In this document: positions 7,254 through 23,863 of the stretch, piece by piece
Numbering within the stretch: the stretch's first letter is position 1
Layout: every line of letters begins with the position of its first letter
Assembly: GCA_022566155.1 (NCBI GenBank)
Contig: JADFJS010000011.1
Location: 1 to 23,863, forward strand
Source of the DNA: Chloroflexota bacterium
GTDB lineage: Bacteria; Chloroflexota; Dehalococcoidia; Lucifugimonadales; UBA3495
DNA length: 23,863 bases
Direction of reading: 5' to 3'
Translations under genes and position numbers: made by a program
Notes under the pieces: generated by a model
What the model was told of the DNA's origin: nothing
Databases searched by the model: none
Seen by the model: the letters and a program-made list of their open reading frames with translations, nothing else

Positions 7254-7712
7254 ATGGCGTGGCGAGACACCTTGGGCAGGCTGCGGGAAGAGCTGGCCGA
7301 TGTGCGGGCGGAACGGCAGCGGCAGGCCGCCGCCGATGAAGCCGAGATCCAGCATCAACGGGAAGAGTTGTCCAAGCTGGTCACTTCCTTGGAGATCAAC
7401 CAATTGCTCAACGAGATGAAAGCCACCCTGCTGAACGGCCAGGGGGAACTAGAAACCATCATCTCTTGGGAAGCACCGGCCGACGGCGACGATGAAGACA
7501 TTAACGACCGTGACGATTCCGAAGAGGAAGAGGGCGACCTCATTGCCAATATATTGATATGGGATGAGGCCGGTGAACGGGAGATCGCGGTGGACCTTGG
7601 GTCGAGTGAAGATGGGACCTACCTCCAGGTTAACGGCGTGGACATTCGCCTGGAGGCCGAAGCCCTGGAGCAGGCGCTGGTGGAGGCTTTCCGCGATGAA
7701 TTGGAGCTGTGA
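7254..7712 (+). CDS. hypothetical acidic protein (predicted coiled-coil N-terminus, D/E-rich middle)
   Basis: 152-aa ORF with a GGGGAGG Shine-Dalgarno 7 nt upstream of the ATG. No recognisable family. Lies between purD and purE. Confidence 0.55.
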   Translation: MAWRDTLGRLREELADVRAERQRQAAADEAEIQHQREELSKLVTSLEINQLLNEMKATLLNGQGELETIISWEAPADGDDEDINDRDDSEEEEGDLIANILIWDEAGEREIAVDLGSSEDGTYLQVNGVDIRLEAEALEQALVEAFRDELEL

Positions 7713-13289: not shown

Positions 13290-13609
13290 CGGCGCTCGCG
13301 GACCCCATAGGCAACCGGGGTATTGCGGCTCATCCTTGGGCAATGGCGTCGCGTGTGTCGTTCCGGCGAAAGCCGAAATCCAGAGACGTAGGCTTCTATG
13401 GGACGTTCGCCCAAACTGCGGCGTTCGCCCAGACAAGGAAATCCGCGCCTATCCGCCGTAGGCAGACGGCCTACGCCGGAACGACGAGGGAAGTTCGCCG
13501 GGGGCACAGCCGCGACGCTCACTATTTCAATCGCCAGATTCGGATCAGCACGAATGGGAGCGCATCCGCCTGCATTCAAGCCGCTGCGGCCGGCGGCGCA
13601 TCCCCGGCG

Positions 13610-13638
13610 TTGACAGTAACAAGTGCCCCCACTACACT
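13610..13638 (+). promoter_or_regulatory. sigma70-like promoter TTGACA-N17-TACACT for gene A
   Basis: Consensus -35 at 13610-13615, a 17-nt spacer and TACACT at 13633-13638. It lies inside the track's extended ORF 13343.., which argues that extension is not coding. Confidence 0.5.
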
Positions 13639-13705: not shown

Positions 13706-16207
13706 ATGCCAAGCTGCCCAGCGTGTCAAACAGAGGTGCAGGCGGACTCGAGGTTCTGCCCCGAATGCGGCCACGCCCTGTCTGCCCCGCCTGCCGGCGC
13801 CGCACAGCCGGCGCAACCGTTTCCGCCTGCCCAGGCCGGGAAGCCGGAAGCAACTTCTTTGCCTGCCGAGGCCGAGGAGTCGGCTGAAAGATACCTGCCT
13901 GCCGACGTGCTGGCCCGGCGGATTCAGCCCCGGGAGATGCAGGGCCTCTTCTCCAAGACCCTGGTCATCGAGGAGGGTTATGAGGCGCTCCTCTTGCTGG
14001 GAGGAAGGCTGGACACCACCCTGACGCCTGGGAAGCACTCCATGGGGAATTTTCTATCTTCCCGGACCAGGGACACAACCGTCGTCCTGTTCCGAACCTC
14101 CGACGCGACCCTGAACACCTCCATCGAGCGGGTGTTCACCTCCGATCCGCTGCCCCTGAGCCTGGATTTGCGCATGGTCCTGAAGATCGAGCAGCCCTTG
14201 CGCCTCTGGAGCAACCTGGCGTTGGGCGCCGACTCCTACTCCACGCGCAACCTGGCCGCCGCCCTCTATCCTCTGGCTGAAGAAGGGTGCGAATATTTTT
14301 TCAAGTCTCGCAAGATGCGGGACCTGGACGCCAATCAGAGCACGCGCCAGGAGATAGAACTTGCTTTGGCCTCTCATCTGGAACAGCCCCTGTCCCGGTG
14401 GGGGCTGCGGCTAGTGTCCGCGCAGGCACTGGGGTTAAGGAGCGAGGCCTGGGACGAAATCAGCAAGTCCCGCATAGAGTACGCGGTGTCTGCCTCCCGG
14501 GAGGAGGCCGCACTGGAAGGACGCAAACGTCTCTTCGACGTCCACCAGGAATCGGACATACAAACCATGGCCGAGGAGACATTGGAAGTAGCCGGCGTGG
14601 AGAAGAGGGTAGCCCTCTGGGAACGCATGCGCCAAGCCCTGCTGTCCAATGCCAAGGGCGAGATTCAGTCCCAGGCGGAACTGGAGGACGTGGTCCGCCA
14701 GGCGGATCGGGACCTGCTCCTTAAAGATGATGAACACCAGTCCTTGATTAAGGCCATGTCCGAAGCCGGGGAGGACCATGAGAAGGCCCGCGCCTTCGTT
14801 CTGCGGCGGGTTGAGGCCGAGGGCGAGCACGAGCTGCAGAAACTGGACCTGTGGCACCAATACGGATTGGGCCAGGAGCGGCTGAATTGGGAGATATCCA
14901 CGGCGCGCCAGGAGATGGAGGGCCGCTGGGAGCTGGAGCTTCGGCGCCTGGACCTGCAGATAACCGGACAGCAGAGAGAAGCGGATTTTCGCCGCCAGCA
15001 GGAGGAAGCAGACCAGGATACCGCGCGCAGCAGGCAGTTGGAGAACGCCAGGACCACCGCGGCCATTGGCGACATAGAGCGGGACCAGGACCAGAAAGAC
15101 GCCGATCTCGGCATGAACCTATACAACCAGTACCGGGCTGCTCGGCGGGAGGATGAGATTGCCCGCCGACAGGCCGAGATCGATGCAGAGGAGAGAAGGC
15201 AGAACTTGACCCTGCAGGCGGAGAGCCAGCGGGTGGAGCTACGCCTGAGGGAATCGCAGCAGCAGCACCGTAGCGAGTTGGAGCGCATCGATGCCCTGTC
15301 CAACTTAGGGATCGAGACCCTGATCGCCGTATCTGGAGCCGAGCAGAGCCAGATGCTGGCCCAACTGGCCCGCACCCGTGCGCTGTCCGGCTGCTCTCCT
15401 GAGCAGATCCTGGCCATGCAGGCCCACGAGAGCCCCCAGGTAGCCGACGCCCTCAAGGAGATGCTCACCGCCACGGCCGCTTCCGGCCAGCTGGAGCAGT
15501 ATGAACGTTTGGTGACCGAGCTCAAGGATAGCGCCAGAATGAGCCGGGAGGACTACCAGCAGAACATGGTCACCATGAACCAGATGTTCAATAAAGCCCT
15601 GGACAGCGTCAAGGATACTGCCGTGGCTTTCAGCTCCGTCCCGGCAACCGTCGCCGCGCCACCACCGCCGGACCTGAGGTCCCACACCGCCCCGGATGGT
15701 ACCGTCACCCTGCTATTCAGCGATATCGAGGGCTCCACCGCCATGTTCGACAGGCTGGGCGACCTGCGTGCCCAGGAGGTCCTTCATATCCACAACGACA
15801 TCTTCCGCCAGAGGTTAGAGTCCTTCGACGGCCATGAGGTCAAGTCCATGGGCGACGGTTTCATGCTGGCATTCTCCAGCGCCCGAGACGGGATCCAGTG
15901 CTCCATCGCGGTCCAACGGGCCTTCGCCGCCCACAATAGCCAGGAAGCAAACGAGCCAATCATGGTGCGCATGGGTCTCCACACCGGAGAAGCCATAAAG
16001 GAGAATCAGGACTATTTCGGCAGGAACGTGATCCTGGCGGCGCGTATCTCGGCCAAAGGCAAAGGCGGGGAGATCCTGGTGTCTTCACTGGTCAAGGAGT
16101 TGACCGAAAGCGCGGGGGACATACCTTTCGACGAAGGACGTGACGTGGAGCTTAAAGGACTGGCCGGTGTCACCCGCATCTACCCGGTACACTGGGAAAA
16201 GCCCTGA
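13706..16207 (+). CDS. Multidomain protein A: double zinc ribbon + SPFH/band-7 domain + flotillin-like coiled coil + class III adenylate cyclase
   Basis: ATG 13706 follows a GGGAG at 8 nt. N-terminus MPSCPACQTEVQADSRFCPECGH (two CxxC pairs), then a P/A-rich linker. SPFH N-terminal strands LVIEEGYEALLLLGGRLDTTLTPGKH. An E/R/Q-rich coiled coil of about 400 aa. C-terminal cyclase homology domain (CHD, class III nucleotidyl cyclase): LLFSDIEGSTAMFDRLGD, VKSMGDGFMLAF, QDYFGRNVILAARISA. No TM segment. The track's earlier start (13343) gives an R-rich low-complexity extension that contains the promoter. Confidence 0.8.
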   Translation: MPSCPACQTEVQADSRFCPECGHALSAPPAGAAQPAQPFPPAQAGKPEATSLPAEAEESAERYLPADVLARRIQPREMQGLFSKTLVIEEGYEALLLLGGRLDTTLTPGKHSMGNFLSSRTRDTTVVLFRTSDATLNTSIERVFTSDPLPLSLDLRMVLKIEQPLRLWSNLALGADSYSTRNLAAALYPLAEEGCEYFFKSRKMRDLDANQSTRQEIELALASHLEQPLSRWGLRLVSAQALGLRSEAWDEISKSRIEYAVSASREEAALEGRKRLFDVHQESDIQTMAEETLEVAGVEKRVALWERMRQALLSNAKGEIQSQAELEDVVRQADRDLLLKDDEHQSLIKAMSEAGEDHEKARAFVLRRVEAEGEHELQKLDLWHQYGLGQERLNWEISTARQEMEGRWELELRRLDLQITGQQREADFRRQQEEADQDTARSRQLENARTTAAIGDIERDQDQKDADLGMNLYNQYRAARREDEIARRQAEIDAEERRQNLTLQAESQRVELRLRESQQQHRSELERIDALSNLGIETLIAVSGAEQSQMLAQLARTRALSGCSPEQILAMQAHESPQVADALKEMLTATAASGQLEQYERLVTELKDSARMSREDYQQNMVTMNQMFNKALDSVKDTAVAFSSVPATVAAPPPPDLRSHTAPDGTVTLLFSDIEGSTAMFDRLGDLRAQEVLHIHNDIFRQRLESFDGHEVKSMGDGFMLAFSSARDGIQCSIAVQRAFAAHNSQEANEPIMVRMGLHTGEAIKENQDYFGRNVILAARISAKGKGGEILVSSLVKELTESAGDIPFDEGRDVELKGLAGVTRIYPVHWEKP
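15697..16195 (+). other. class III nucleotidyl (adenylate) cyclase catalytic domain within gene A
   Basis: Metal-binding Asp residues (FSDIEGST, GDGFM), substrate Lys (VKSMGD) and Asp (QDYFG), and transition-state Asn/Arg (GRNVILAAR). Confidence 0.75.
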
Positions 16208-16630
16208 CCGGATACCACCGGGTCCAGCAATGCGCCGAGTGTAAGGAGCAACATAGTCACTGCTGCAACGGCCAACGTCCGACCATATCGCCCGCCAGTG
16301 TTCGGCTTGCTTAATAGAAAATCATCTGCTAGCATTTTGTGGTGGTGAACCAGGAATGCGCCGGATAACCGATTAAAAATCACGCATCCTGGACTTTCTC
16401 GATGAAGATTGAACCAATGAGGCAAAGAGGCTCGGTAGCTGCCTCCTGGCAGGAAACCCGGAGACTTACTCTGATCCGGTAGGATCTTACACCGTTCCCT
16501 GTCGAAACCAAGCCCGGCCAGTGACTGGAAATGTTTCCATTGCCGGACCAGCCTAGTTCAGCGCCGATACCGGCCAACGGCAATAGTAATCACCCAATCT
16601 CAGCAAGGACGGCCAGCAAGGAGGTGCGAT

Positions 16631-18190
16631 ATGACCCTGCGCTCCAATGATGCAGCCGGAGGCTCCGCCGCGACGGCCGACGTTGATGACGACCTGGTAT
16701 TGCTGGAAAGTACCCGCGTACCGGACCTTCCCGGATTTCTAAGCAGAAATGTGGTGCTCGGCCCAGAGGAAACCGGCTTCGTTACGGCCAACGGAAGCGT
16801 AGTCTCGGAGCTGAGCCGCGGTTCCAACAAGGTTGGGTGGTCCTTTTTCGGCTGGTTCGGAAGCAGCAACCGGGAGGTAGTCAAGCTGCACAACCGGCCG
16901 TTCCGGCTGCGCCTCTACTTCACCGGCCTGCTTTCCAAAGGATATGACACCCTGGACGCGATGATCCACCTCACCGTTTCGGTGAGGGACCCGTCCCTTT
17001 TCTACAGCAGAATGGGACGGGGCATGGTCCGCCTGTCGGCCAGCCAGTTGGCGAGCCGGGTCGCCGCCAGCATGGACGACCTGCTCCAGGTCAAGGTCAC
17101 GGAGATAGACGGCCAGGCCCTGCGCCACGACCGCCAGGTGCAACACCGTCTGACCACCGACCTGGAGCCCACGTTGAACCGGGCCCTGGACGAGCGGGGT
17201 GTAAACCTGGAAAGCGTGGACCTGGTCGCCTTCGACAATCCCGGCGAGGGAGACGAGCTCCTGAACGAGCTGGCCGATGCCGACAGGATGATAGCCAGCG
17301 GCACCAAGCCAGGACGTGAGGACATTCAGCGCACTCTGACCCGCCTGCAAGCCGCCGGCCTGGCCACTCCGGAGATGGCGGAGCGGGCCCAACTACTCTA
17401 CGATGGCGGCACCAACGATGCCTTCTTTGGCGTGATGAAAGACATCAGCCGGGCATCTAGGCGCCGGCTGGAGGCCCGGCTGGCCGACCGGTCGGAGCAA
17501 CTCACCCAGAAACTTAATGGCGACGAGACCCCAACATCCGCCGGCATGCTGTCGATGGAACGATTGTTGAAGTTCATCGGTCCGATATGCGCCATTGTGG
17601 GCCTGGTTTACAAGTTTGCATTTACGGGATTCGCCGGCGGTCCGATAGTGCTCATTGGTGGCCTGATCGGAGCCGTGGCCTTCGCCGGCGGATACCTTAT
17701 TATCCGCGCCAAGCGTATCCTGGGCATCGGGAAGGGGGATGAAATCGTGATCCGGCTGGACCGGTGGGCCAAGAAAAACAGCATGGCCACCGACGACTTG
17801 ATCCGCCGCCAGATGGGACGTGAGTTTTCCAACAGCTTGACCGACGTTAAGGATGCCAAGCTCGTGGCCTTCCGCGAGGACAAGAAAGCTGTCGCCAACG
17901 CCTTGAGCGACCTGGAAAACCGCATGGACCTTATGCGTACCGAGGTAGAGTCGGCCCCGGCCGCCTCCACCATAGTATCGGTGAAAAACTTTCCCACCCA
18001 GCGCATATCCCGGATGGTCAGCTTCGAAGAGGAGCTGCTGCGTCAAGCCAGAAACCTTTCCATCCGCTCCCAAACCGCGAAGGAGTCCCTTAGCGAAGAG
18101 GACGTGGAGGCGTTGCGGGTGGGCCTGGACAATTTCCACCGGTCATTCTCCAAGCGCCTTGGCCTGCTGGAAGGATTCAAGGAACTTTAA
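16631..18190 (+). CDS. Protein B: SPFH-like N-domain + internal hydrophobic hairpin + coiled-coil tail
   Basis: AGGAGG 7 nt upstream. N-terminus NVVLGPEETGFVTANGSVVSELSRGSN, paralogous to the SPFH start of A and C. A band-7-like core. A 45-aa hydrophobic stretch FIGPICAIVGLVYKFAFTGFAGGPIVLIGGLIGAVAFAGGYLII (two TM helices or a re-entrant hairpin). A C-terminal helical region. Confidence 0.75.
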   Translation: MTLRSNDAAGGSAATADVDDDLVLLESTRVPDLPGFLSRNVVLGPEETGFVTANGSVVSELSRGSNKVGWSFFGWFGSSNREVVKLHNRPFRLRLYFTGLLSKGYDTLDAMIHLTVSVRDPSLFYSRMGRGMVRLSASQLASRVAASMDDLLQVKVTEIDGQALRHDRQVQHRLTTDLEPTLNRALDERGVNLESVDLVAFDNPGEGDELLNELADADRMIASGTKPGREDIQRTLTRLQAAGLATPEMAERAQLLYDGGTNDAFFGVMKDISRASRRRLEARLADRSEQLTQKLNGDETPTSAGMLSMERLLKFIGPICAIVGLVYKFAFTGFAGGPIVLIGGLIGAVAFAGGYLIIRAKRILGIGKGDEIVIRLDRWAKKNSMATDDLIRRQMGREFSNSLTDVKDAKLVAFREDKKAVANALSDLENRMDLMRTEVESAPAASTIVSVKNFPTQRISRMVSFEEELLRQARNLSIRSQTAKESLSEEDVEALRVGLDNFHRSFSKRLGLLEGFKEL

Positions 18191-18243
18191 CCTGATGCTC
18201 GAATCCCGGGACATGAAGACAGGACTGGAGTAAAGGAGGCGTC

Positions 18244-20199
18244 ATGCCTGCCAAATTATTCAACAATCGTTGGGAGCGGGAGCCGGATGATTTCGCGGCC
18301 GTGTTGAGCGAGAGGGATCTGGCCGGCTTCACTACCAAGAACATCGTCATAGAAGAAGGCACCATGGGCCTCCTTCTGGTCCAGGGCCGCTTCGACCGAA
18401 GGCTGGACCCCGGCGAGCACGCTTTGGAAGGTGGCCTTGGGGCCATCTTTGTGGGCCGTGAGAGAAAGATCGTGGTCCTGGTCAGCCTAGGCGACGCTAT
18501 GCTGCACATCACCCTGCCGCGCCTATTGACCCGAGACCCGGTTCCCTTTGGCGTACAGGTGGCGCTTACCCTGAGATTCAATCCGGGGCGGGAAGCCATA
18601 TTTCTCAGCAACTTTATGTCGGGTAAGGAGTCCCTCACCACCCACGACCTGCGGAACCTGGTCTACTCCGAGATCAACGAGGCCGCCCAGGCTTGGGCCG
18701 GTGGCCACACCATCAGGGAATTGGGCGAAAATATGGCCCTTCGGGACGAGATGGCCCTCGCCCTCGAGGCCCACATCAGGCCGCTGCTGGACCGCTACGG
18801 CCTCACCTTTGGCCGCCTGGAGGTCCGGGATTTCAAGTCGGAGATCTTGGACCGGTCCGTGAACCAGCGGGTGGAAACCTCCCTCCAGGTTACCAAGGAG
18901 CAGGCCGAGTTGGAGGGCCGCAAGAGGTTCTTCGACATCGCCGTGGAGACGGACATCCAAGACGTCACCGAAGAGACCCAGAAGGTGGCCACCTACGAGA
19001 AGCGGATCCTGTTATGGCAGCGCATGCAGCGAGCGGCGAACCAGGAGCAGATTGACAAGATAAGCTCCGAACAGGACCTGACCGACTTCATGCGCCAGAC
19101 CGACCGCGACAACCTGTTGAAAGAGGACGAGTTGGAGCGGTTCAAACAGGCGTTGGTGGACTCCGGTGAGGACCGGGAAAGGCTCCGCGCCCAGATCATC
19201 CGCCTAGCGGAAATGGAGGCCGAGTACGATTACAAACGCAAGGAGCTGTCCCAGCAGGCATCCCTGAGCCAGGAGCAGTTGGAAGGGGAGATGGGCCTGG
19301 AGCGGCTGCGCATGGAGGGCCAGCTTGAGACGGCGTTGAAGCGCACCGACCTGACCCTGGAGCGGGAACGCCGGGAGGCTGAGCAGGCGCGCAACGAGGA
19401 AGACCTGAACGCCGCCGCCCGCTACGAGCGAGAGCTGCGGGAGGCCAGGACCGGGGCCGAAGCACAGGGTATCGCCAGAGAGACCGCCCGGTTGGACGCC
19501 GAGCTGTCCCTGGCGCTGGAGGACCAGCGGGCGGCCCAGGAACGCCTGAATCAACAAGAGCAAGTCAGTATGACACTCCAAAGGCAGGCCGACGAGCAGG
19601 AACTGGCATTTAAGGCTGAGGAGGCCAAGCTAGACCTGCGCCTCCGAGAGCTTAGGGACCAACACCAGCGCGAGCTGGAGTCCATGCAATCCATGGACGC
19701 CGTCTCATTGCACACCTTGATTGCCGTGGCGCCGGGCGAGAAGGCGCCCTTGCTGGCGGAGTTGGCTCGAACCGAGGCACTCAAGAGCCTGTCGCCGGAC
19801 CAGATATTGGCCATCGCCGCCGAGAAGAGCCCCGAACTTGGCGGCGCTTTGGCTGAGATGGCAGCCCAGGGCGGCAGCGAACAGGCCAAGGCGATGTATG
19901 AACGTATCCTGGAAGAGCAGAAGGGCGCTGCCGCCGATATGCGGGAGAGCCAGCGGGAGATGACCGAAACCATGAAGGAGATGTTCAACAAGGCCCTGGA
20001 AACGCAGGCACAGGTGGCCTCGGCCTTCGCCCAAGGGATAGGACAGGCCGCCCAGAATCCAACGCCTGCCGCGGGCTCGGGTTCGCCCGGAGCAGCACCC
20101 CAGCGCGTGGTTGTCTGCCGGCGCTGCCTGACGGAGTCCGCCACGGGGACCAGGTACTGCCCCAACTGCGGCGACAGCATCATGAACGAACCTCGGTAG
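18244..20199 (+). CDS. Protein C: SPFH/band-7 + flotillin-like coiled coil + C-terminal double zinc ribbon (paralog of A without the cyclase)
   Basis: AGGAGG 6 nt upstream. IVIEEGTMGLLLVQGRFDRRLDPGEH aligns with A. QAELEGRKRFFDIAVETDIQDVTEETQKVATYEKRILLWQRMQRA aligns with A's EAALEGRKRLFDVHQESDIQTMAEETLEVAGVEKRVALWERMRQA. HTLIAVAPGEKAPLLAELARTEALKSLSPDQILAI aligns with A's ETLIAVSGAEQSQMLAQLARTRALSGCSPEQILAM. It ends with CRRCLTESATGTRYCPNCGD. Confidence 0.8.
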   Translation: MPAKLFNNRWEREPDDFAAVLSERDLAGFTTKNIVIEEGTMGLLLVQGRFDRRLDPGEHALEGGLGAIFVGRERKIVVLVSLGDAMLHITLPRLLTRDPVPFGVQVALTLRFNPGREAIFLSNFMSGKESLTTHDLRNLVYSEINEAAQAWAGGHTIRELGENMALRDEMALALEAHIRPLLDRYGLTFGRLEVRDFKSEILDRSVNQRVETSLQVTKEQAELEGRKRFFDIAVETDIQDVTEETQKVATYEKRILLWQRMQRAANQEQIDKISSEQDLTDFMRQTDRDNLLKEDELERFKQALVDSGEDRERLRAQIIRLAEMEAEYDYKRKELSQQASLSQEQLEGEMGLERLRMEGQLETALKRTDLTLERERREAEQARNEEDLNAAARYERELREARTGAEAQGIARETARLDAELSLALEDQRAAQERLNQQEQVSMTLQRQADEQELAFKAEEAKLDLRLRELRDQHQRELESMQSMDAVSLHTLIAVAPGEKAPLLAELARTEALKSLSPDQILAIAAEKSPELGGALAEMAAQGGSEQAKAMYERILEEQKGAAADMRESQREMTETMKEMFNKALETQAQVASAFAQGIGQAAQNPTPAAGSGSPGAAPQRVVVCRRCLTESATGTRYCPNCGDSIMNEPR

Positions 20200-20269
20200 A
20201 CAAGGCCAAGGCCATCGTGGCAGCCAACGGACGGTTGCCCGAGGCCATTTCCGGATTTCGCAACCCATC

Positions 20270-20302
20270 GGGAGGGCCTATTGACAGGCCCTCCCGTAGT
20301 TT
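20270..20302 (+). terminator. terminator-like hairpin after gene C (9-bp perfect GC-rich stem GGGAGGGCC/GGCCCTCCC, 8-nt loop, weak U-tail)
   Basis: Stem 20270-20278 pairs with 20287-20295. Loop tattgaca. Followed by gtagtttcc. Confidence 0.45.
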
Positions 20303-20497: not shown

Positions 20498-20525
20498 TTG
20501 ACGTAAATTTTGGACAAACTATAAT
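20498..20525 (+). promoter_or_regulatory. near-consensus sigma70 promoter TTGACG-N16-TATAAT for the surface-protein gene
   Basis: -35 at 20498-20503, -10 at 20520-20525, so the TSS is about 20532-20535. A GAGG Shine-Dalgarno then TTG 20570. Confidence 0.55.
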
Positions 20526-20569: not shown

Positions 20570-23500
20570 TTGGCCGAAGACGCGGAAAAAAAGGAAGATC
20601 AGTACGGTATCGGCCCCGCCGGCGATCTGGAGTGGATTTCTCTGGAGCAGGCCGGCGTCCAGGCCATGCGCACCGCCAGAGAGGATCCGGGAAACTACGG
20701 CAGGACCTACTCAGGCACCCGCATGGTCTTCGACGTCACTGAGGAGGAGGACGGGGAAGACTACTACATCATCACCCTTTCCTTCCGCCCCGAGGGTGAC
20801 TTTTCCGGCACACCCGGCCAAGAACAGTTCTTCATAGAGAAAGAGGGCGCGGTTGCCGTTCGCCAGGTGCGCAGCCTGCCCGTCCCGGATCGAAGGCGCC
20901 GGTCCCGTGCCCCGGTCTACATTATTCTGGGTATCGGCGTTGTTATTGCTGGGGTGATTGGGGCCATGTTCGCCGCCGGCGTGCTACCGCCCGGCGCCGA
21001 CGGACCCACGCCCACACCCCCCATAGGACAGCAGGGCCAGGATGCCGTCCAGGTCACGGTGGAACTACTGCCAGGGCAGGCGGCTCGCTTGAACTCGCCG
21101 CAGGGTGATGTGACCGTAGACGTTAGCGCCGGGTCGGTAGACGGACCAATGGAACTTGTGTACCGGGAGCTGTCGCCGGACGAGATACCCGCAATGCCGG
21201 TGGGTTTCAACGCCTCGGACAAGCTATTCGATCTGTCCGTCACCGGTACCCAGGCCTCCACCACCGGCCGATTCTCATTTTCCAAGCCGGCCACCATTAC
21301 GGTGCGCCTCACCGCCGCACACGTAGAGCTTGCGGACAGAGAAGAGTCCAACCTGGTGATCCAGCACTTTGACGAAGCCAGGGGAGAGTGGACGGCTCTT
21401 CCAACTACCGTAGACTTCACCTTATTAACCGCTCGCGCCGAGGTGGAAAGTCTCAGCAAATTCGCCCTCACCATTAGGCAGCTCGGCGAGCAGTCCGTCA
21501 CAACCTCTCCCGGCGATACCTCAGCAGGGGATCAGATCAGTTTTGAGCTCACCGTCAACGGCAGGCAGGTGACCGGCCCAAGCGTAGACACCGCCAACGC
21601 CACCGTCGATGTCTCTCCGCCCCCCAACGCGCCGAATGACAGGTACATCACGGGGACGGAAGTGAAGCTTACGCTGTCCCCTGACAGTGGATACAAGGGC
21701 TCCTGCGATACTTCGTCCGTCTTCATGACATCGGACCTGGAAGTCGGCTGCTCCGTGACCAGGGAAAGCTACACGTTGAGCATTCTGGGCAGGCCGGTTA
21801 CGGGCCCAACGCTTGCCATGGCCGAAGGCACGGTAAACCTCTCGCCAGCCCCCAACGCACCTGGCAACCAGTACATTTCCGGTACCGTGGTGAACGTCAG
21901 CCTCTCGCCGGCCAGCGGATTCGAGGGCTCTTGCGACACCCTGGCGGTGACCATGACCTCCGACCGCAACGTTAGCTGCACCATGACCCAGCAGAGATTC
22001 ATCTTGACCATCGAGGGAGTCCAAGTGCTGGCAGGCCAGATAACGGTGGAAGTGGCCAACGGGGAGATAGACGTTAGCGAGGCCCCAGGATTCGATGGCA
22101 TGTACGCCGGCAACGTCGAGTTGTCTTTATTTGCTTACCCGTATTCCTCAGGCGCCACAATTTTTTGGAATGGGGTCGACACCGAGGGCTTCGAATCCGC
22201 CACCGTTCAGATGTCCAGGGACCGGTTTGTCACCGTGGACATCCTGCCGCTAGACCTCCACGGCGATTCCAGATTTGACGCCACGCCGATCTCGCCCGGC
22301 CTCACCTCGGGCGCCATCGATCCGCCCGGCGACCTGGACTTCTTCCAATTCTTCGCCCAGGCAGGCACCACCTACACGATCGAGGTGATTCCGGACACCC
22401 ACCCCGATACGTTACTCATCCTGTACGACTCCAGGGGCAACTGGCTGGATGAAGACGATGACGGGGGGCGAAGCGGTGGAGAACATCTGGAATGGACCGC
22501 CCCTTCCACCGGCGAGTACTACATCGAAGTCCGCTCCTTCGATCAGAGCTTCGATACAGGTTCCTATACCCTGTCACTGAGCACCGCGGATGACCACGGC
22601 GACTCCATTGATACCGCCACGTTCGTCTCCTTCGGCCTCACACCGGGCACCATTGGCCCGTCCGACGACGCGGACTATTTCGGCTTTTCGGCCCAGGCCG
22701 GCACTGCTTACCTCATAGAAGTGATCCTGGAAAGTCACCCCGATACGGTCCTGACTCTCTACGACTCCCGGGGCAACTGGTTAGATGAAGACGATGACGG
22801 GCGACGGGACGGTGGGGAATCAATCACTTGGACCGCCCTTTCCACCGGCGATTACTACGTGGCAGTCCGCTCCTTCTACCAGGAGTTCGATACAGGTTCC
22901 TATATCGTGTCGATCAATGTGGAGGATGACCACGGTGACTTTATCGGCACCGCCACGACCGTCTTCCTCGGCTTTACATCGGGCAGCATCGACCCGCCCG
23001 ACGACCTGGATTATTTCCGTTTCTCCGCCCAGGCCGGCACCACCTACCTGGTAGAGGTGATCTTGGAAAGTCACCCGGATACGGTCCTGACCCTTTATGA
23101 CTCCCGGGGCAACTGGATAGAGGAAGACGACGACGGGGGACGGGAAGGCGGAGAATCGATCACCTGGACCGCCACTACCAGCGGGAATTACTATTTCGAA
23201 GTCAGGTCCTTCGACCAAAGCTTCGACAGAGGCTCCTATACTCTATCGCTGAGTATTGCTGATGACCACGGCGACTCCATCGAGACGGCGACAGCCGTCT
23301 CCCTCGGCCTCACCTCGGGCGTCATCGACCCGTCCGGCGACTTGGACTATTTCCGGTTCTCCGCGCAGGCCGGCTCGACCTACACCATGGAGTTGATCTT
23401 GGGGACCCACCGCGACACGATGCTCACCCTTTACGACTCCAGGGGAAACTGGTTGGATGAAGACGATGACGGGAGACCGGAAGGTGGAGAGTTGTTGGAA

Positions 23501-23863
23501 TGGACCGCCCCACTGGCCGGCGATTATTACATCGAGGTCCGCTCCTACGACCCGAGCTTCGATATAGGCTCCTACACCCTGTCGCTGAACGTTGAAGTCC
23601 GTGCCGTCGACCGGCACGGCGATTCCATTCAGGCCGCCACGTCCATCGCCACAGGCATCAACTCGGGCGCAATTGACCCTTCCGACGACCTGGACTATTT
23701 CAGTTTCTTCGCCCAGGCAGGCACCACTTACATCATCGAGGTGATCCTGGGCTCCCACCCCGACACTCTGCTCACGATCTACGACTCCCGGGGCAGGTGG
23801 CAAGGTGAAAACGACGATGGGCGGCGCGGAGGCGGGGAACTAGTGGAATGGACCGCCCCGTCC
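20570..23863 (+). CDS. Type II membrane-anchored surface protein: ~105-aa cytoplasmic N-domain, 1 TM, Ig-like region, 2 divergent InlB-B-like repeats, at least 5 PPC (pre-peptidase C-terminal) domains. Partial, continues beyond the right edge
   Basis: Frame 2 is open from the TAA at 20522 to the window end. It is absent from the ORF track because it has no stop. N-terminus ...RRRRSRAP then TM VYIILGIGVVIAGVIGAMFAAGV (positive-inside, so the C-terminus is out). Two ~80-aa repeats with ATVDVSP..Y.GTEV.LTLSP.SGY.GSCDT..V.MTSD..V.C (divergent InlB B-repeat pattern). Five ~112-aa repeats with HGDS..TAT..G.TSG.IDP..DLDYF.F.AQAGTTY.IEVI...PDT.LTLYDSRGNWLDEDDDG...GGE...WTA..G.YY.EVRSFD.SFD.GSYTLSL (PPC pattern). 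Start TTG 20570 preferred over ATG 20666 because of promoter spacing and the Shine-Dalgarno. Confidence 0.75.
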   Translation, partial: MAEDAEKKEDQYGIGPAGDLEWISLEQAGVQAMRTAREDPGNYGRTYSGTRMVFDVTEEEDGEDYYIITLSFRPEGDFSGTPGQEQFFIEKEGAVAVRQVRSLPVPDRRRRSRAPVYIILGIGVVIAGVIGAMFAAGVLPPGADGPTPTPPIGQQGQDAVQVTVELLPGQAARLNSPQGDVTVDVSAGSVDGPMELVYRELSPDEIPAMPVGFNASDKLFDLSVTGTQASTTGRFSFSKPATITVRLTAAHVELADREESNLVIQHFDEARGEWTALPTTVDFTLLTARAEVESLSKFALTIRQLGEQSVTTSPGDTSAGDQISFELTVNGRQVTGPSVDTANATVDVSPPPNAPNDRYITGTEVKLTLSPDSGYKGSCDTSSVFMTSDLEVGCSVTRESYTLSILGRPVTGPTLAMAEGTVNLSPAPNAPGNQYISGTVVNVSLSPASGFEGSCDTLAVTMTSDRNVSCTMTQQRFILTIEGVQVLAGQITVEVANGEIDVSEAPGFDGMYAGNVELSLFAYPYSSGATIFWNGVDTEGFESATVQMSRDRFVTVDILPLDLHGDSRFDATPISPGLTSGAIDPPGDLDFFQFFAQAGTTYTIEVIPDTHPDTLLILYDSRGNWLDEDDDGGRSGGEHLEWTAPSTGEYYIEVRSFDQSFDTGSYTLSLSTADDHGDSIDTATFVSFGLTPGTIGPSDDADYFGFSAQAGTAYLIEVILESHPDTVLTLYDSRGNWLDEDDDGRRDGGESITWTALSTGDYYVAVRSFYQEFDTGSYIVSINVEDDHGDFIGTATTVFLGFTSGSIDPPDDLDYFRFSAQAGTTYLVEVILESHPDTVLTLYDSRGNWIEEDDDGGREGGESITWTATTSGNYYFEVRSFDQSFDRGSYTLSLSIADDHGDSIETATAVSLGLTSGVIDPSGDLDYFRFSAQAGSTYTMELILGTHRDTMLTLYDSRGNWLDEDDDGRPEGGELLEWTAPLAGDYYIEVRSYDPSFDIGSYTLSLNVEVRAVDRHGDSIQAATSIATGINSGAIDPSDDLDYFSFFAQAGTTYIIEVILGSHPDTLLTIYDSRGRWQGENDDGRRGGGELVEWTAPS
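21535..22005 (+). repeat. 2 x ~240-bp tandem coding repeat (InlB-B-like domains)
   Basis: The protein repeats ...VTGPSVDTANATVDVSPPPNAPNDRYITGTEVKLTLSPDSGYKGSCDTSSVFMTSDLEVGCSVT and ...VTGPTLAMAEGTVNLSPAPNAPGNQYISGTVVNVSLSPASGFEGSCDTLAVTMTSDRNVSCTMT. Partial DNA identity. Confidence 0.5.
22259..23863 (+). repeat. at least 5 x ~336-bp tandem coding repeats (PPC domains), truncated by the window end
   Basis: Unit starts near 22259, 22603, 22933, 23269 and 23617 (periods 330-347 bp). Each encodes a DDHGDS...SYTLSL unit. Long near-identical DNA stretches, e.g. ctttacgactcccggggcaactgg. Confidence 0.85.

Follow-up and report, generated by a model that had tools for sequence, protein, structure and literature searches.

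We characterised three consecutive genes, A, B and C, in a 23,863-nt stretch of DNA (the window) from a deep-ocean Chloroflexota bacterium (JADFJS010000011.1, assembly GCA_022566155.1) that we place in SAR202. The trio may encode a membrane scaffold built from three SPFH paralogues, with a cyclic AMP (cAMP) output that is built in and activated by assembly. We hold this reading tentatively, giving it a little less than an even chance. The open reading frames (ORFs) of A (13706..16207), B (16631..18190) and C (18244..20199) share one orientation, and a Shine-Dalgarno sequence is visible before each (GGGAGA, AAGGAGGTG and AAAGGAGG, respectively). This agreed with an earlier prediction made from the DNA letters alone (the original prediction). 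The gap from A to B, which that prediction did not mention, is 423 bp; the gap from B to C is 53 bp. Features written as start..end lie on the forward strand, and window coordinates follow residue ranges.

Gene A encodes 833 amino acids (aa) comprising a zinc ribbon, an SPFH domain, a long helical core, a Pro-rich linker and a class III adenylyl cyclase. We observed a match of its SPFH/Band 7 domain (residues 87-240; 13964..14425) to PF01145 (E 3e-9, 37.6 bits, gathering cut-off 23.6). The C-terminal domain (residues 664-822; 15695..16171) matched PF00211 (E 4e-19, 69.5 bits, cut-off 21.9), and aligned over the whole catalytic domain with Ma1120 of Mycobacterium avium (PDB 4wp3; E 4e-43), as expected from the predicted class III cyclase at this end of A. 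Alignment to Ma1120, with its K101/D157 pair as reference, gave metal-binding D673 and D717, an ATP-type K713/D769 pair and the transition-state R780. With the domain match, both metal-binding Asp residues, the Lys/Asp pair and the Arg in place, A belongs by sequence to the class III nucleotidyl cyclases. The transition-state Asn is not kept, Ile776 being found at that position. Ma1120 is an experimentally active adenylyl cyclase and carries Ala164 at the same place (PMC4215837), so the missing Asn leaves activity of A possible. A resembles Ma1120 in the Lys/Asp substrate pair, the metal-binding Asp residues and the lost Asn, whereas Ma1120 is a stand-alone catalytic domain and the cyclase of A is tethered to a scaffold protein of ~640 residues. 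The tether is the Pro-rich linker (~640-663, ~25 residues), and no coiled-coil signalling helix lies ahead of the domain. The identical catalytic set was present in 24/30 complete A orthologue clusters. The other six (P0014, P0016, P0027, P0028, P0029 and P0031) were substituted at a metal-binding Asp (D to E, N or G). Their cyclases may be inactive, which suggests that the domain was retained in some SAR202 lineages though its activity was lost.

The N-terminus of A carries a single four-Cys ribbon (residues 4-25, with C4, C7, C18 and C21; 13715..13780; Pfam Zn_Ribbon_1, 26.5 bits) where a double ribbon had been predicted. This ribbon was kept in 28 of the 29 orthologues with a complete N-terminus. 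Because orthologues begin MPxCPxC, a start of A at 13706 is supported. A start at 13343, which would give a longer ORF, was rejected, as orthologues begin at the zinc ribbon.

Gene C (651 aa) has an SPFH domain (residues 16-198; 18289..18837; PF01145, E 4e-9), a long helical core, a flexible linker and a C-terminal zinc ribbon. The Pfam Band_7 match itself spanned residues 35-223 (37.1 bits, cut-off 23.6). The predicted C-terminal ribbon was found as four Cys residues in a CxxC...CxxC pattern (C625, C628, C639, C642; 20107..20178), on the strength of a weak Pfam match and the Cys positions, and it was kept across C orthologues. In the structural model of C (predicted local distance difference test, pLDDT, 77.3), the SPFH domain is followed by very long helices, a small helical bundle, a disordered linker (596-620, pLDDT <50) and the ribbon. 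Foldseek returned HflC/HflK, prohibitin, stomatin, erlin, flotillin and QmcA as the best matches of this model, and also vault proteins. By sequence, C had no match in the PDB, flotillin included; fold comparison alone worked.

A and C aligned at 37% identity over 600 residues with few gaps (E 5e-110), which bears out the claim that they are alignable along most of their length. The N-terminal ribbon of A aligned with the C-terminal ribbon of C (E 4e-5) and is of the same type, and the helical core was nearly free of indels across the A and C clades. Nearly all single-copy relatives carry ribbons at both termini. Neighbour-joining on the core grouped the A and C clades as sisters, with the single-copy double-ribbon proteins branching outside them. 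The original prediction had described the ribbons as swapped between termini; the double-ribboned relatives, together with the sister clades, indicate that they were partitioned instead. According to the sequences, an ancestral ribbon-SPFH-coiled-coil-ribbon gene was duplicated, after which C dropped its N-terminal ribbon and A its C-terminal one. The cyclase would then be a later addition, having taken the vacated C-terminal position of A in SAR202.

Gene B (519 aa) had no match in Pfam, NCBIfam or PADLOC, and BLAST gave a faint N-terminal similarity to C. A profile of the SPFH core of A and C nevertheless matched B residues 29-201 (E 5e-11), and a B-family profile picked up the SPFH domains of A and C at E values of 1e-13 to 1e-18. 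By these profiles B is a divergent SPFH paralogue of A and C. The prediction of SPFH domains in all three proteins was therefore upheld, with A and C belonging to the superfamily (PF01145) by sequence scores above the gathering threshold and B by profile and fold only. The alpha/beta SPFH fold followed by a long helix was recognised. The SPFH-fold domain of B (residues ~23-202; 16697..17236) is followed by helices, a transmembrane (TM) hairpin (residues ~312-360; 17564..17710; Kyte-Doolittle 19-residue windows >1.6) and a conserved C-terminal helical domain (residues ~375-519; 17753..18187), the best-predicted part of the model (pLDDT 85-92). The model places two helices at the hairpin with low confidence. 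This hairpin was the only segment of TM-grade hydrophobicity among A, B and C, as had been predicted; the maximum 19-residue Kyte-Doolittle value was 0.95 for A and 1.56 for C, and neither has a hydrophobic segment. An N-terminal membrane attachment of the SPFH type (TM segment, hairpin or lipid) was not found, and the hairpin of B is internal.

Long coiled coils of the flotillin type had been predicted in all three proteins. A and C do have a long helical core, but the region of B after its SPFH domain consists of shorter helices, the TM hairpin and its own C-terminal domain, and lacks a long coiled coil of the A/C type. With matches allowed up to E 1, the Flot domain was still not seen in A, B or C. 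None of the three is therefore a flotillin in the strict sense, and the resemblance is at the level of the fold. The B family is rare. Among 1.84 billion cluster representatives, 213 matched at E 1e-3 or better (a list that takes in fragments and A/C-type proteins matched through the SPFH domain alone), 62 at 1e-10 and 18 at 1e-30. A contig scan with the B alignment, run through one peptide pattern, returned 2 loci and is unsuited to judging distribution.

Close homologues of A, B and C all came from metagenome bins of SAR202 or other Chloroflexota, and all were annotated as hypothetical. For the wider family, a metagenome scan with the A/C alignment yielded 79 loci, down to 23% identity, in which ORFs were called and searched with profiles. 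The A-B-C order was kept in every SAR202-type locus that was long enough (the window, L001, L005, L086 and L009-L011). Pairing was counted over 40 non-redundant cyclase-less C-like genes with enough upstream sequence, to ~25% identity. We observed a partner gene directly upstream in 30/40: 23 full B-type genes, 5 genes for proteins with the C-terminal domain of B, and 2 for other divergent SPFH proteins. Three of the 10 unpaired C-like genes were A-clade paralogues with B further along the locus. Paired genes were found in differing contexts, in Anaerolineae (including Brevefilum fermentans) and in Acidobacteriota. Among the loci searched with profiles, the cyclase was seen in SAR202-type loci only. 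The original prediction had treated the three genes as one module; their neighbourhood is conserved, but the conserved unit is the B-C pair and not the whole trio, and the cyclase is both late and patchy.

In the solved SPFH assemblies (HflK/C, flotillin-1/2, prohibitin, erlin and stomatin), paralogous subunits form rings or domes in which the C-termini converge. Class III cyclases have their active site at the dimer interface and are active as dimers only. Set against this background, a hetero-oligomeric SPFH scaffold anchored by B is plausible. B would sit in the membrane through its internal hairpin, with its SPFH and C-terminal helical domains both cytoplasmic, and would recruit C and A, soluble proteins that lack an anchor. 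These two would co-assemble as a ring or dome with converging C-termini, like the solved assemblies, so gathering the cyclases of A and the ribbons of C at one pole on flexible tethers. Since class III cyclases work only as dimers, assembly would raise the local concentration of the tethered domains, which could then dimerise and start making cAMP. The cAMP level would reflect how far the scaffold has assembled and, through it, presumably the condition of the membrane or envelope. Four elements of this model are inferred: interaction of the proteins, ring formation, activation by assembly and a link to stress.

The closest precedents for such co-assembly are the paralogue pairs HflK/C, flotillin-1/2, prohibitin-1/2 and erlin-1/2, which have matched coiled coils and were the top structural matches of the B and C models. 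The matched, nearly indel-free cores of A and C are expected if the two co-assemble, because both would need to fit one lattice. The trio differs from these hetero-oligomeric cages in that A and C lack an N-terminal anchor, have a helical core about 2x longer and show no Pfam match to any of the subfamilies. It also has three paralogues rather than two, and an enzymatic domain is attached.

Several observations weigh against a cAMP-producing assembly of all three proteins. A sister lineage in the A clade (P0042, in L088) has the N-terminal ribbon and no cyclase, with B still the next gene. Two loci of other Chloroflexota (L002 and L015) have an A-like paralogue that lacks both ribbon and cyclase and is placed two genes upstream of B-C. 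The cyclase-less P0042 lineage and the six Asp-substituted clusters suggest that a cAMP output is dispensable for the module, and no cAMP receptor gene was visible in the neighbourhood of the trio. The 423-bp gap, with a promoter-like motif belonging to B-C, means that A could act alone.

We aligned the A-B spacers of four loci and observed a single conserved island, GGCTTGC-N13-(A)TCTGCTAG; the remainder does not align. In the window the motif reads CTTGC-N13-ATCTGCTAG, that is, TTGCTT-17-TGnTAGCAT (16306..16332; 1 copy in the window vs 0 expected). It has the form of a -35 element (TTGCnn), a 17-nt spacer and an extended -10 element (TGnTAGnnT). The exact motif occurred upstream of B in 4 other loci and, among all collected loci, upstream of B genes only. 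A slightly relaxed version was present in 10/16 SAR202-type loci, 140-315 nt before the B start, leaving a long leader of variable length between motif and gene. Rfam detected no RNA family over the whole window, and hence no riboswitch in this leader. A blastn comparison of the three intergenic regions with all collected loci gave no matches, and the motif surfaced only in the targeted alignment. Because the conserved motif lies within the gap, B and C would have their own promoter and A would be made at least partly as a separate transcript; the module probably forms two transcription units. The motif is more conserved than a generic promoter needs to be, and may also be a site for a regulator or an alternative sigma factor. 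An 81-aa ORF on the minus strand of the spacer (16180-16425) formed a singleton cluster with no relatives in any locus and was taken as spurious.

This spacer is one ground for separating the trio into two independent units. B and C would then be a scaffold pair, and A a separately transcribed SPFH-cyclase, acting as its own homo-oligomer or as a soluble sensor and adjacent to the pair through tandem duplication. Many loci that hold B-C without an A-type gene would fit such an arrangement, as would the A-like gene displaced by two genes in L002 and L015, and SPFH proteins such as stomatin do form homo-oligomers. Against it, the A-B-C order is kept in SAR202-type loci and also in the cyclase-less L088, A and C have kept cores of matching length ever since they duplicated long ago, and A has no membrane anchor of its own. 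We consider two independent units possible yet rather unlikely, and we prefer the reading of a three-paralogue scaffold with cAMP output.

How B might hold C and A at the membrane is suggested by distant relatives. We refer to the zinc-ribbon/SPFH/coiled-coil protein paired with B in distant lineages as S, and to the two together as the B-S pair; one S protein belongs to Brevefilum fermentans. Proteins of ~330 aa were found in the position of B upstream of S (L042:171-1151, L079:6711-7778, L052:6695-7744 and L056:4494-5465). They are unrelated to B elsewhere and of the lipoprotein type, with a signal peptide, a CsgG/LpoB-like domain, one TM helix and a cytoplasmic homologue of the C-terminal domain of B (profile positions 379-504). 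Judged by sequence, this domain is a mobile module tied to the S protein. Because it stays with the S gene even on a differently anchored protein, it is the best candidate docking site for C and A.

We also observed a conserved Anaerolineae operon around the B-S pair in about ten loci (among them L029:147-18004, and also L033, L035, L045, L048, L051, L060 and L017). Its order is a 246-aa coiled-coil protein with an acidic tail, an AAA ATPase, a PQQ propeller protein with TPR/solenoid and zinc-ribbon parts, a 446-aa protein with an HEKLGH motif, B, S, a VWA protein and kinases. The 2-3 Ser/Thr kinases carry WD40 or FGE-sulfatase domains. The ATPase is a classical AAA protein, nearest to the D2 domain of Cdc48/VAT, and aligns with Vps4B over residues 45-342. 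The 246-aa protein gave no match to PspA, Snf7 or ESCRT-III in a PDB profile search or in Pfam at E up to 1. An ESCRT-III/PspA identity had been considered for it on visual impression and found no support in these searches. The operon looks like a bacterial counterpart of archaeal ESCRT-type loci, and we regard this as a lead. In other lineages, signalling enzymes and a membrane-active ATPase accompany the B-S pair; in SAR202 a scaffold subunit itself includes the signalling enzyme as a fused domain.

These loci allow the trio to be read as what is left of a larger system for membrane remodelling or trafficking. The trio would do the same work at the membrane as the Anaerolineae operon, and a cyclase would stand in for the kinases as the signalling arm. 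The conservation of the operon with its AAA, propeller, VWA and kinase genes would support this, together with the Cdc48/VAT-like, Vps4B-alignable ATPase. So would the archaeal Vps4/ESCRT-III loci, which contain SPFH, coiled-coil and zinc-ribbon proteins, and the link of YdjI to PspA, both described in Makarova et al. 2024 (PMC10936438). The partner genes of the operon are, however, absent from the window and from SAR202 loci, and its small coiled-coil protein matches none of PspA, Snf7 and ESCRT-III. We regard a reduced remodelling system as improbable; it complements a cAMP-producing scaffold more than it excludes one. More speculatively, and with a chance that we put as low, the B-S pair, as a membrane-anchored adaptor and its zinc-ribbon/SPFH/coiled-coil partner in several bacterial lineages, could be the core of an undescribed membrane system that couples SPFH cage assembly to signalling enzymes. 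These would be a fused, assembly-gated cyclase in SAR202, and kinases alongside an AAA ATPase and a coat-like propeller-solenoid protein in Anaerolineae. If that were true, the Anaerolineae operon would mean that bacteria possess an apparatus for membrane remodelling of an ESCRT-like or coat-like kind, and the trio would be the first SPFH scaffold to act as an assembly-gated second-messenger generator.

We compared the trio with two known systems that pair SPFH proteins with zinc ribbons. In Bacillus subtilis, the cytosolic SPFH protein YdjI (SamI) is recruited by the membrane proteins SamG and SamH, YdjG (SamG) carries a zinc ribbon, and SamGHI senses and signals membrane stress (PMC8581546; bioRxiv 10.64898/2026.02.06.704340). 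The original prediction had noted an echo of YdjG/YdjI, and the reported recruitment of SamI by SamG/SamH (PMC8581546) strengthens it: PspA-YdjGHI shares with the trio an anchorless cytosolic SPFH protein, as A and C are, and a membrane partner. This likeness is known at the level of the SPFH domain. In the trio, by contrast, the SPFH proteins carry the ribbons as fused domains, B as the membrane partner belongs to the SPFH paralogues too, and one paralogue carries a cyclase. No pspA gene (PspA_IM30) was found among the Pfam-scanned ORFs of the window, where pur, BNR and PPC genes were, and we do not assign the trio to PspA-YdjGHI.

The second system is archaeal. According to Makarova et al. 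2024 (PMC10936438), ESCRT-type loci termed 'Meth_adaptin' encode a protein with SPFH, coiled-coil and zinc-ribbon parts, and YdjI works with PspA. By domain order alone, this protein is like C and the single-copy bacterial relatives; the Anaerolineae relatives likewise adjoin a classical AAA ATPase, a propeller protein and kinases. Unlike Meth_adaptin loci, the SAR202 locus has neither a Vps4-like ATPase nor an ESCRT-III gene, both in the window and in the SAR202 loci, and the trio falls outside that group. In the part consulted, that account mentions no cyclase fusion and no B-type partner.

The architecture had been predicted to be undescribed. This stands for three features, the SPFH-cyclase fusion, the SPFH paralogue that combines an internal hairpin with a dedicated C-terminal domain, and the B-S pairing, which were absent from the annotations and literature that we searched. 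It does not stand for the SPFH, coiled-coil and zinc-ribbon protein, which already appears in PMC10936438. The building blocks have precedents, as has the general principle of scaffolds made of SPFH paralogues and of a cytosolic SPFH protein that is recruited; the cyclase fusion and the B partner were described in none of the annotations and papers searched.

The original prediction offered a defence or abortive-infection sensor signalling through cAMP as an alternative. In an anti-phage role of this kind, the cyclase would make a nucleotide alarm signal. The cyclase of A did match generic PycC models of Pycsar (E 1.5e-5 at best), and these matches were weak. CBASS-type E2, E1 and JAB genes lie near the trio in L001, L005, L008, L011, L012, L038 and L086, and L086 has an SMC/AAA_23 ATPase gene inserted directly before A. 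No PADLOC model matched B, C or their relatives, however, and no effector gene was present, so that we assign the trio to neither Pycsar nor CBASS. For substrate binding the cyclase has the ATP-type Lys/Asp pair, as in a housekeeping-style adenylyl cyclase, and no homologues were found in 2.9 million viral contigs. In some lineages the cyclase is lost or degenerate and B-C persists. Because the trio keeps its place beside the pur operon at 59 to 86% identity, the locus is not island-like, which also disfavours defence. Together these data suggest that a defence role is very unlikely.

The E2, ThiF-type E1 and JAB genes form a triad in the seven SAR202-type loci named above, at L001:19984-22418, L005:15537-17916, L008:2637-5251, L011:5086-8457, L012:3421-6792, L038:2785-6023 and L086:21026-22430; the E2 and E1 genes match PADLOC models of the CBASS type. 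The triad is usually convergent and sits just downstream of C or after the PPC-domain genes. L038 differs in having it ahead of A, in the same orientation. Its expected place lies beyond the end of the window, and plain synteny and a functional link are both possible.

SPFH proteins (flotillins, prohibitins, stomatins and HflK/C) occur across all life; their cage structures were recently solved, and their function is debated. An SPFH-cyclase fusion could serve as a 'Rosetta stone' in this debate, in that the assembly state of the scaffold may itself be the signal. cAMP would be a simple readout for what triggers SPFH assembly, and the fusion a direct experimental handle on SPFH function. B adds a rare, unannotated partner family (~200 cluster representatives) that consistently accompanies an SPFH protein with a zinc ribbon. 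In the dark ocean, SAR202 ranks with the most abundant groups of bacteria. None of its members is in culture, and conserved signalling modules are therefore one of the few ways to approach its physiology.

We also assessed the signals and genes around the trio. The consensus promoter predicted for A corresponds to TTGACA-17-TACACT (13610..13638; 10/12 consensus matches). Sites of this type occurred at chance level in the region (2 found vs 1.7 expected from shuffled sequence), and we give this one little weight. Downstream, the predicted terminator hairpin exists as a GC-rich, perfect 11-bp stem 70 nt past the C stop (20269..20296; dG -24.7 kcal/mol, z -4.15). As a possible terminator it is less certain: it failed a terminator scan because its tail has just three U residues.

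On its 5' side the trio follows a purine-biosynthesis cluster (guaA, purD, purE, purB, purC and purS) and a BNR/sortilin-like gene, and it holds this same position after the pur genes in L001 and L086 (59% and 86% identity). The insertion between the BNR gene and A in L086, which is absent from the window, consists of an 827-aa SMC_N/AAA_23 ATPase and a 62-aa ORF (L086:7169-9652). On the 3' side, an ORF of >1,098 aa runs off the end of the window (20570-23863) and encodes four PPC pre-peptidase C-terminal domains and a Y_Y_Y domain. Ahead of it lies a strong promoter-like site, TTGACG-16-TATAAT (20498-20525). Related PPC-domain genes come after the trio in L001, L005, L006 and L086; in L001, on a 1.3-Mb contig, a DDE_3 transposase and an HTH gene lie between them (L001:17410-18524). 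Within the pur cluster of the window, a 152-aa ORF without a family match (7254-7712) is kept, by position and sequence cluster, in L001 (4365-4847).

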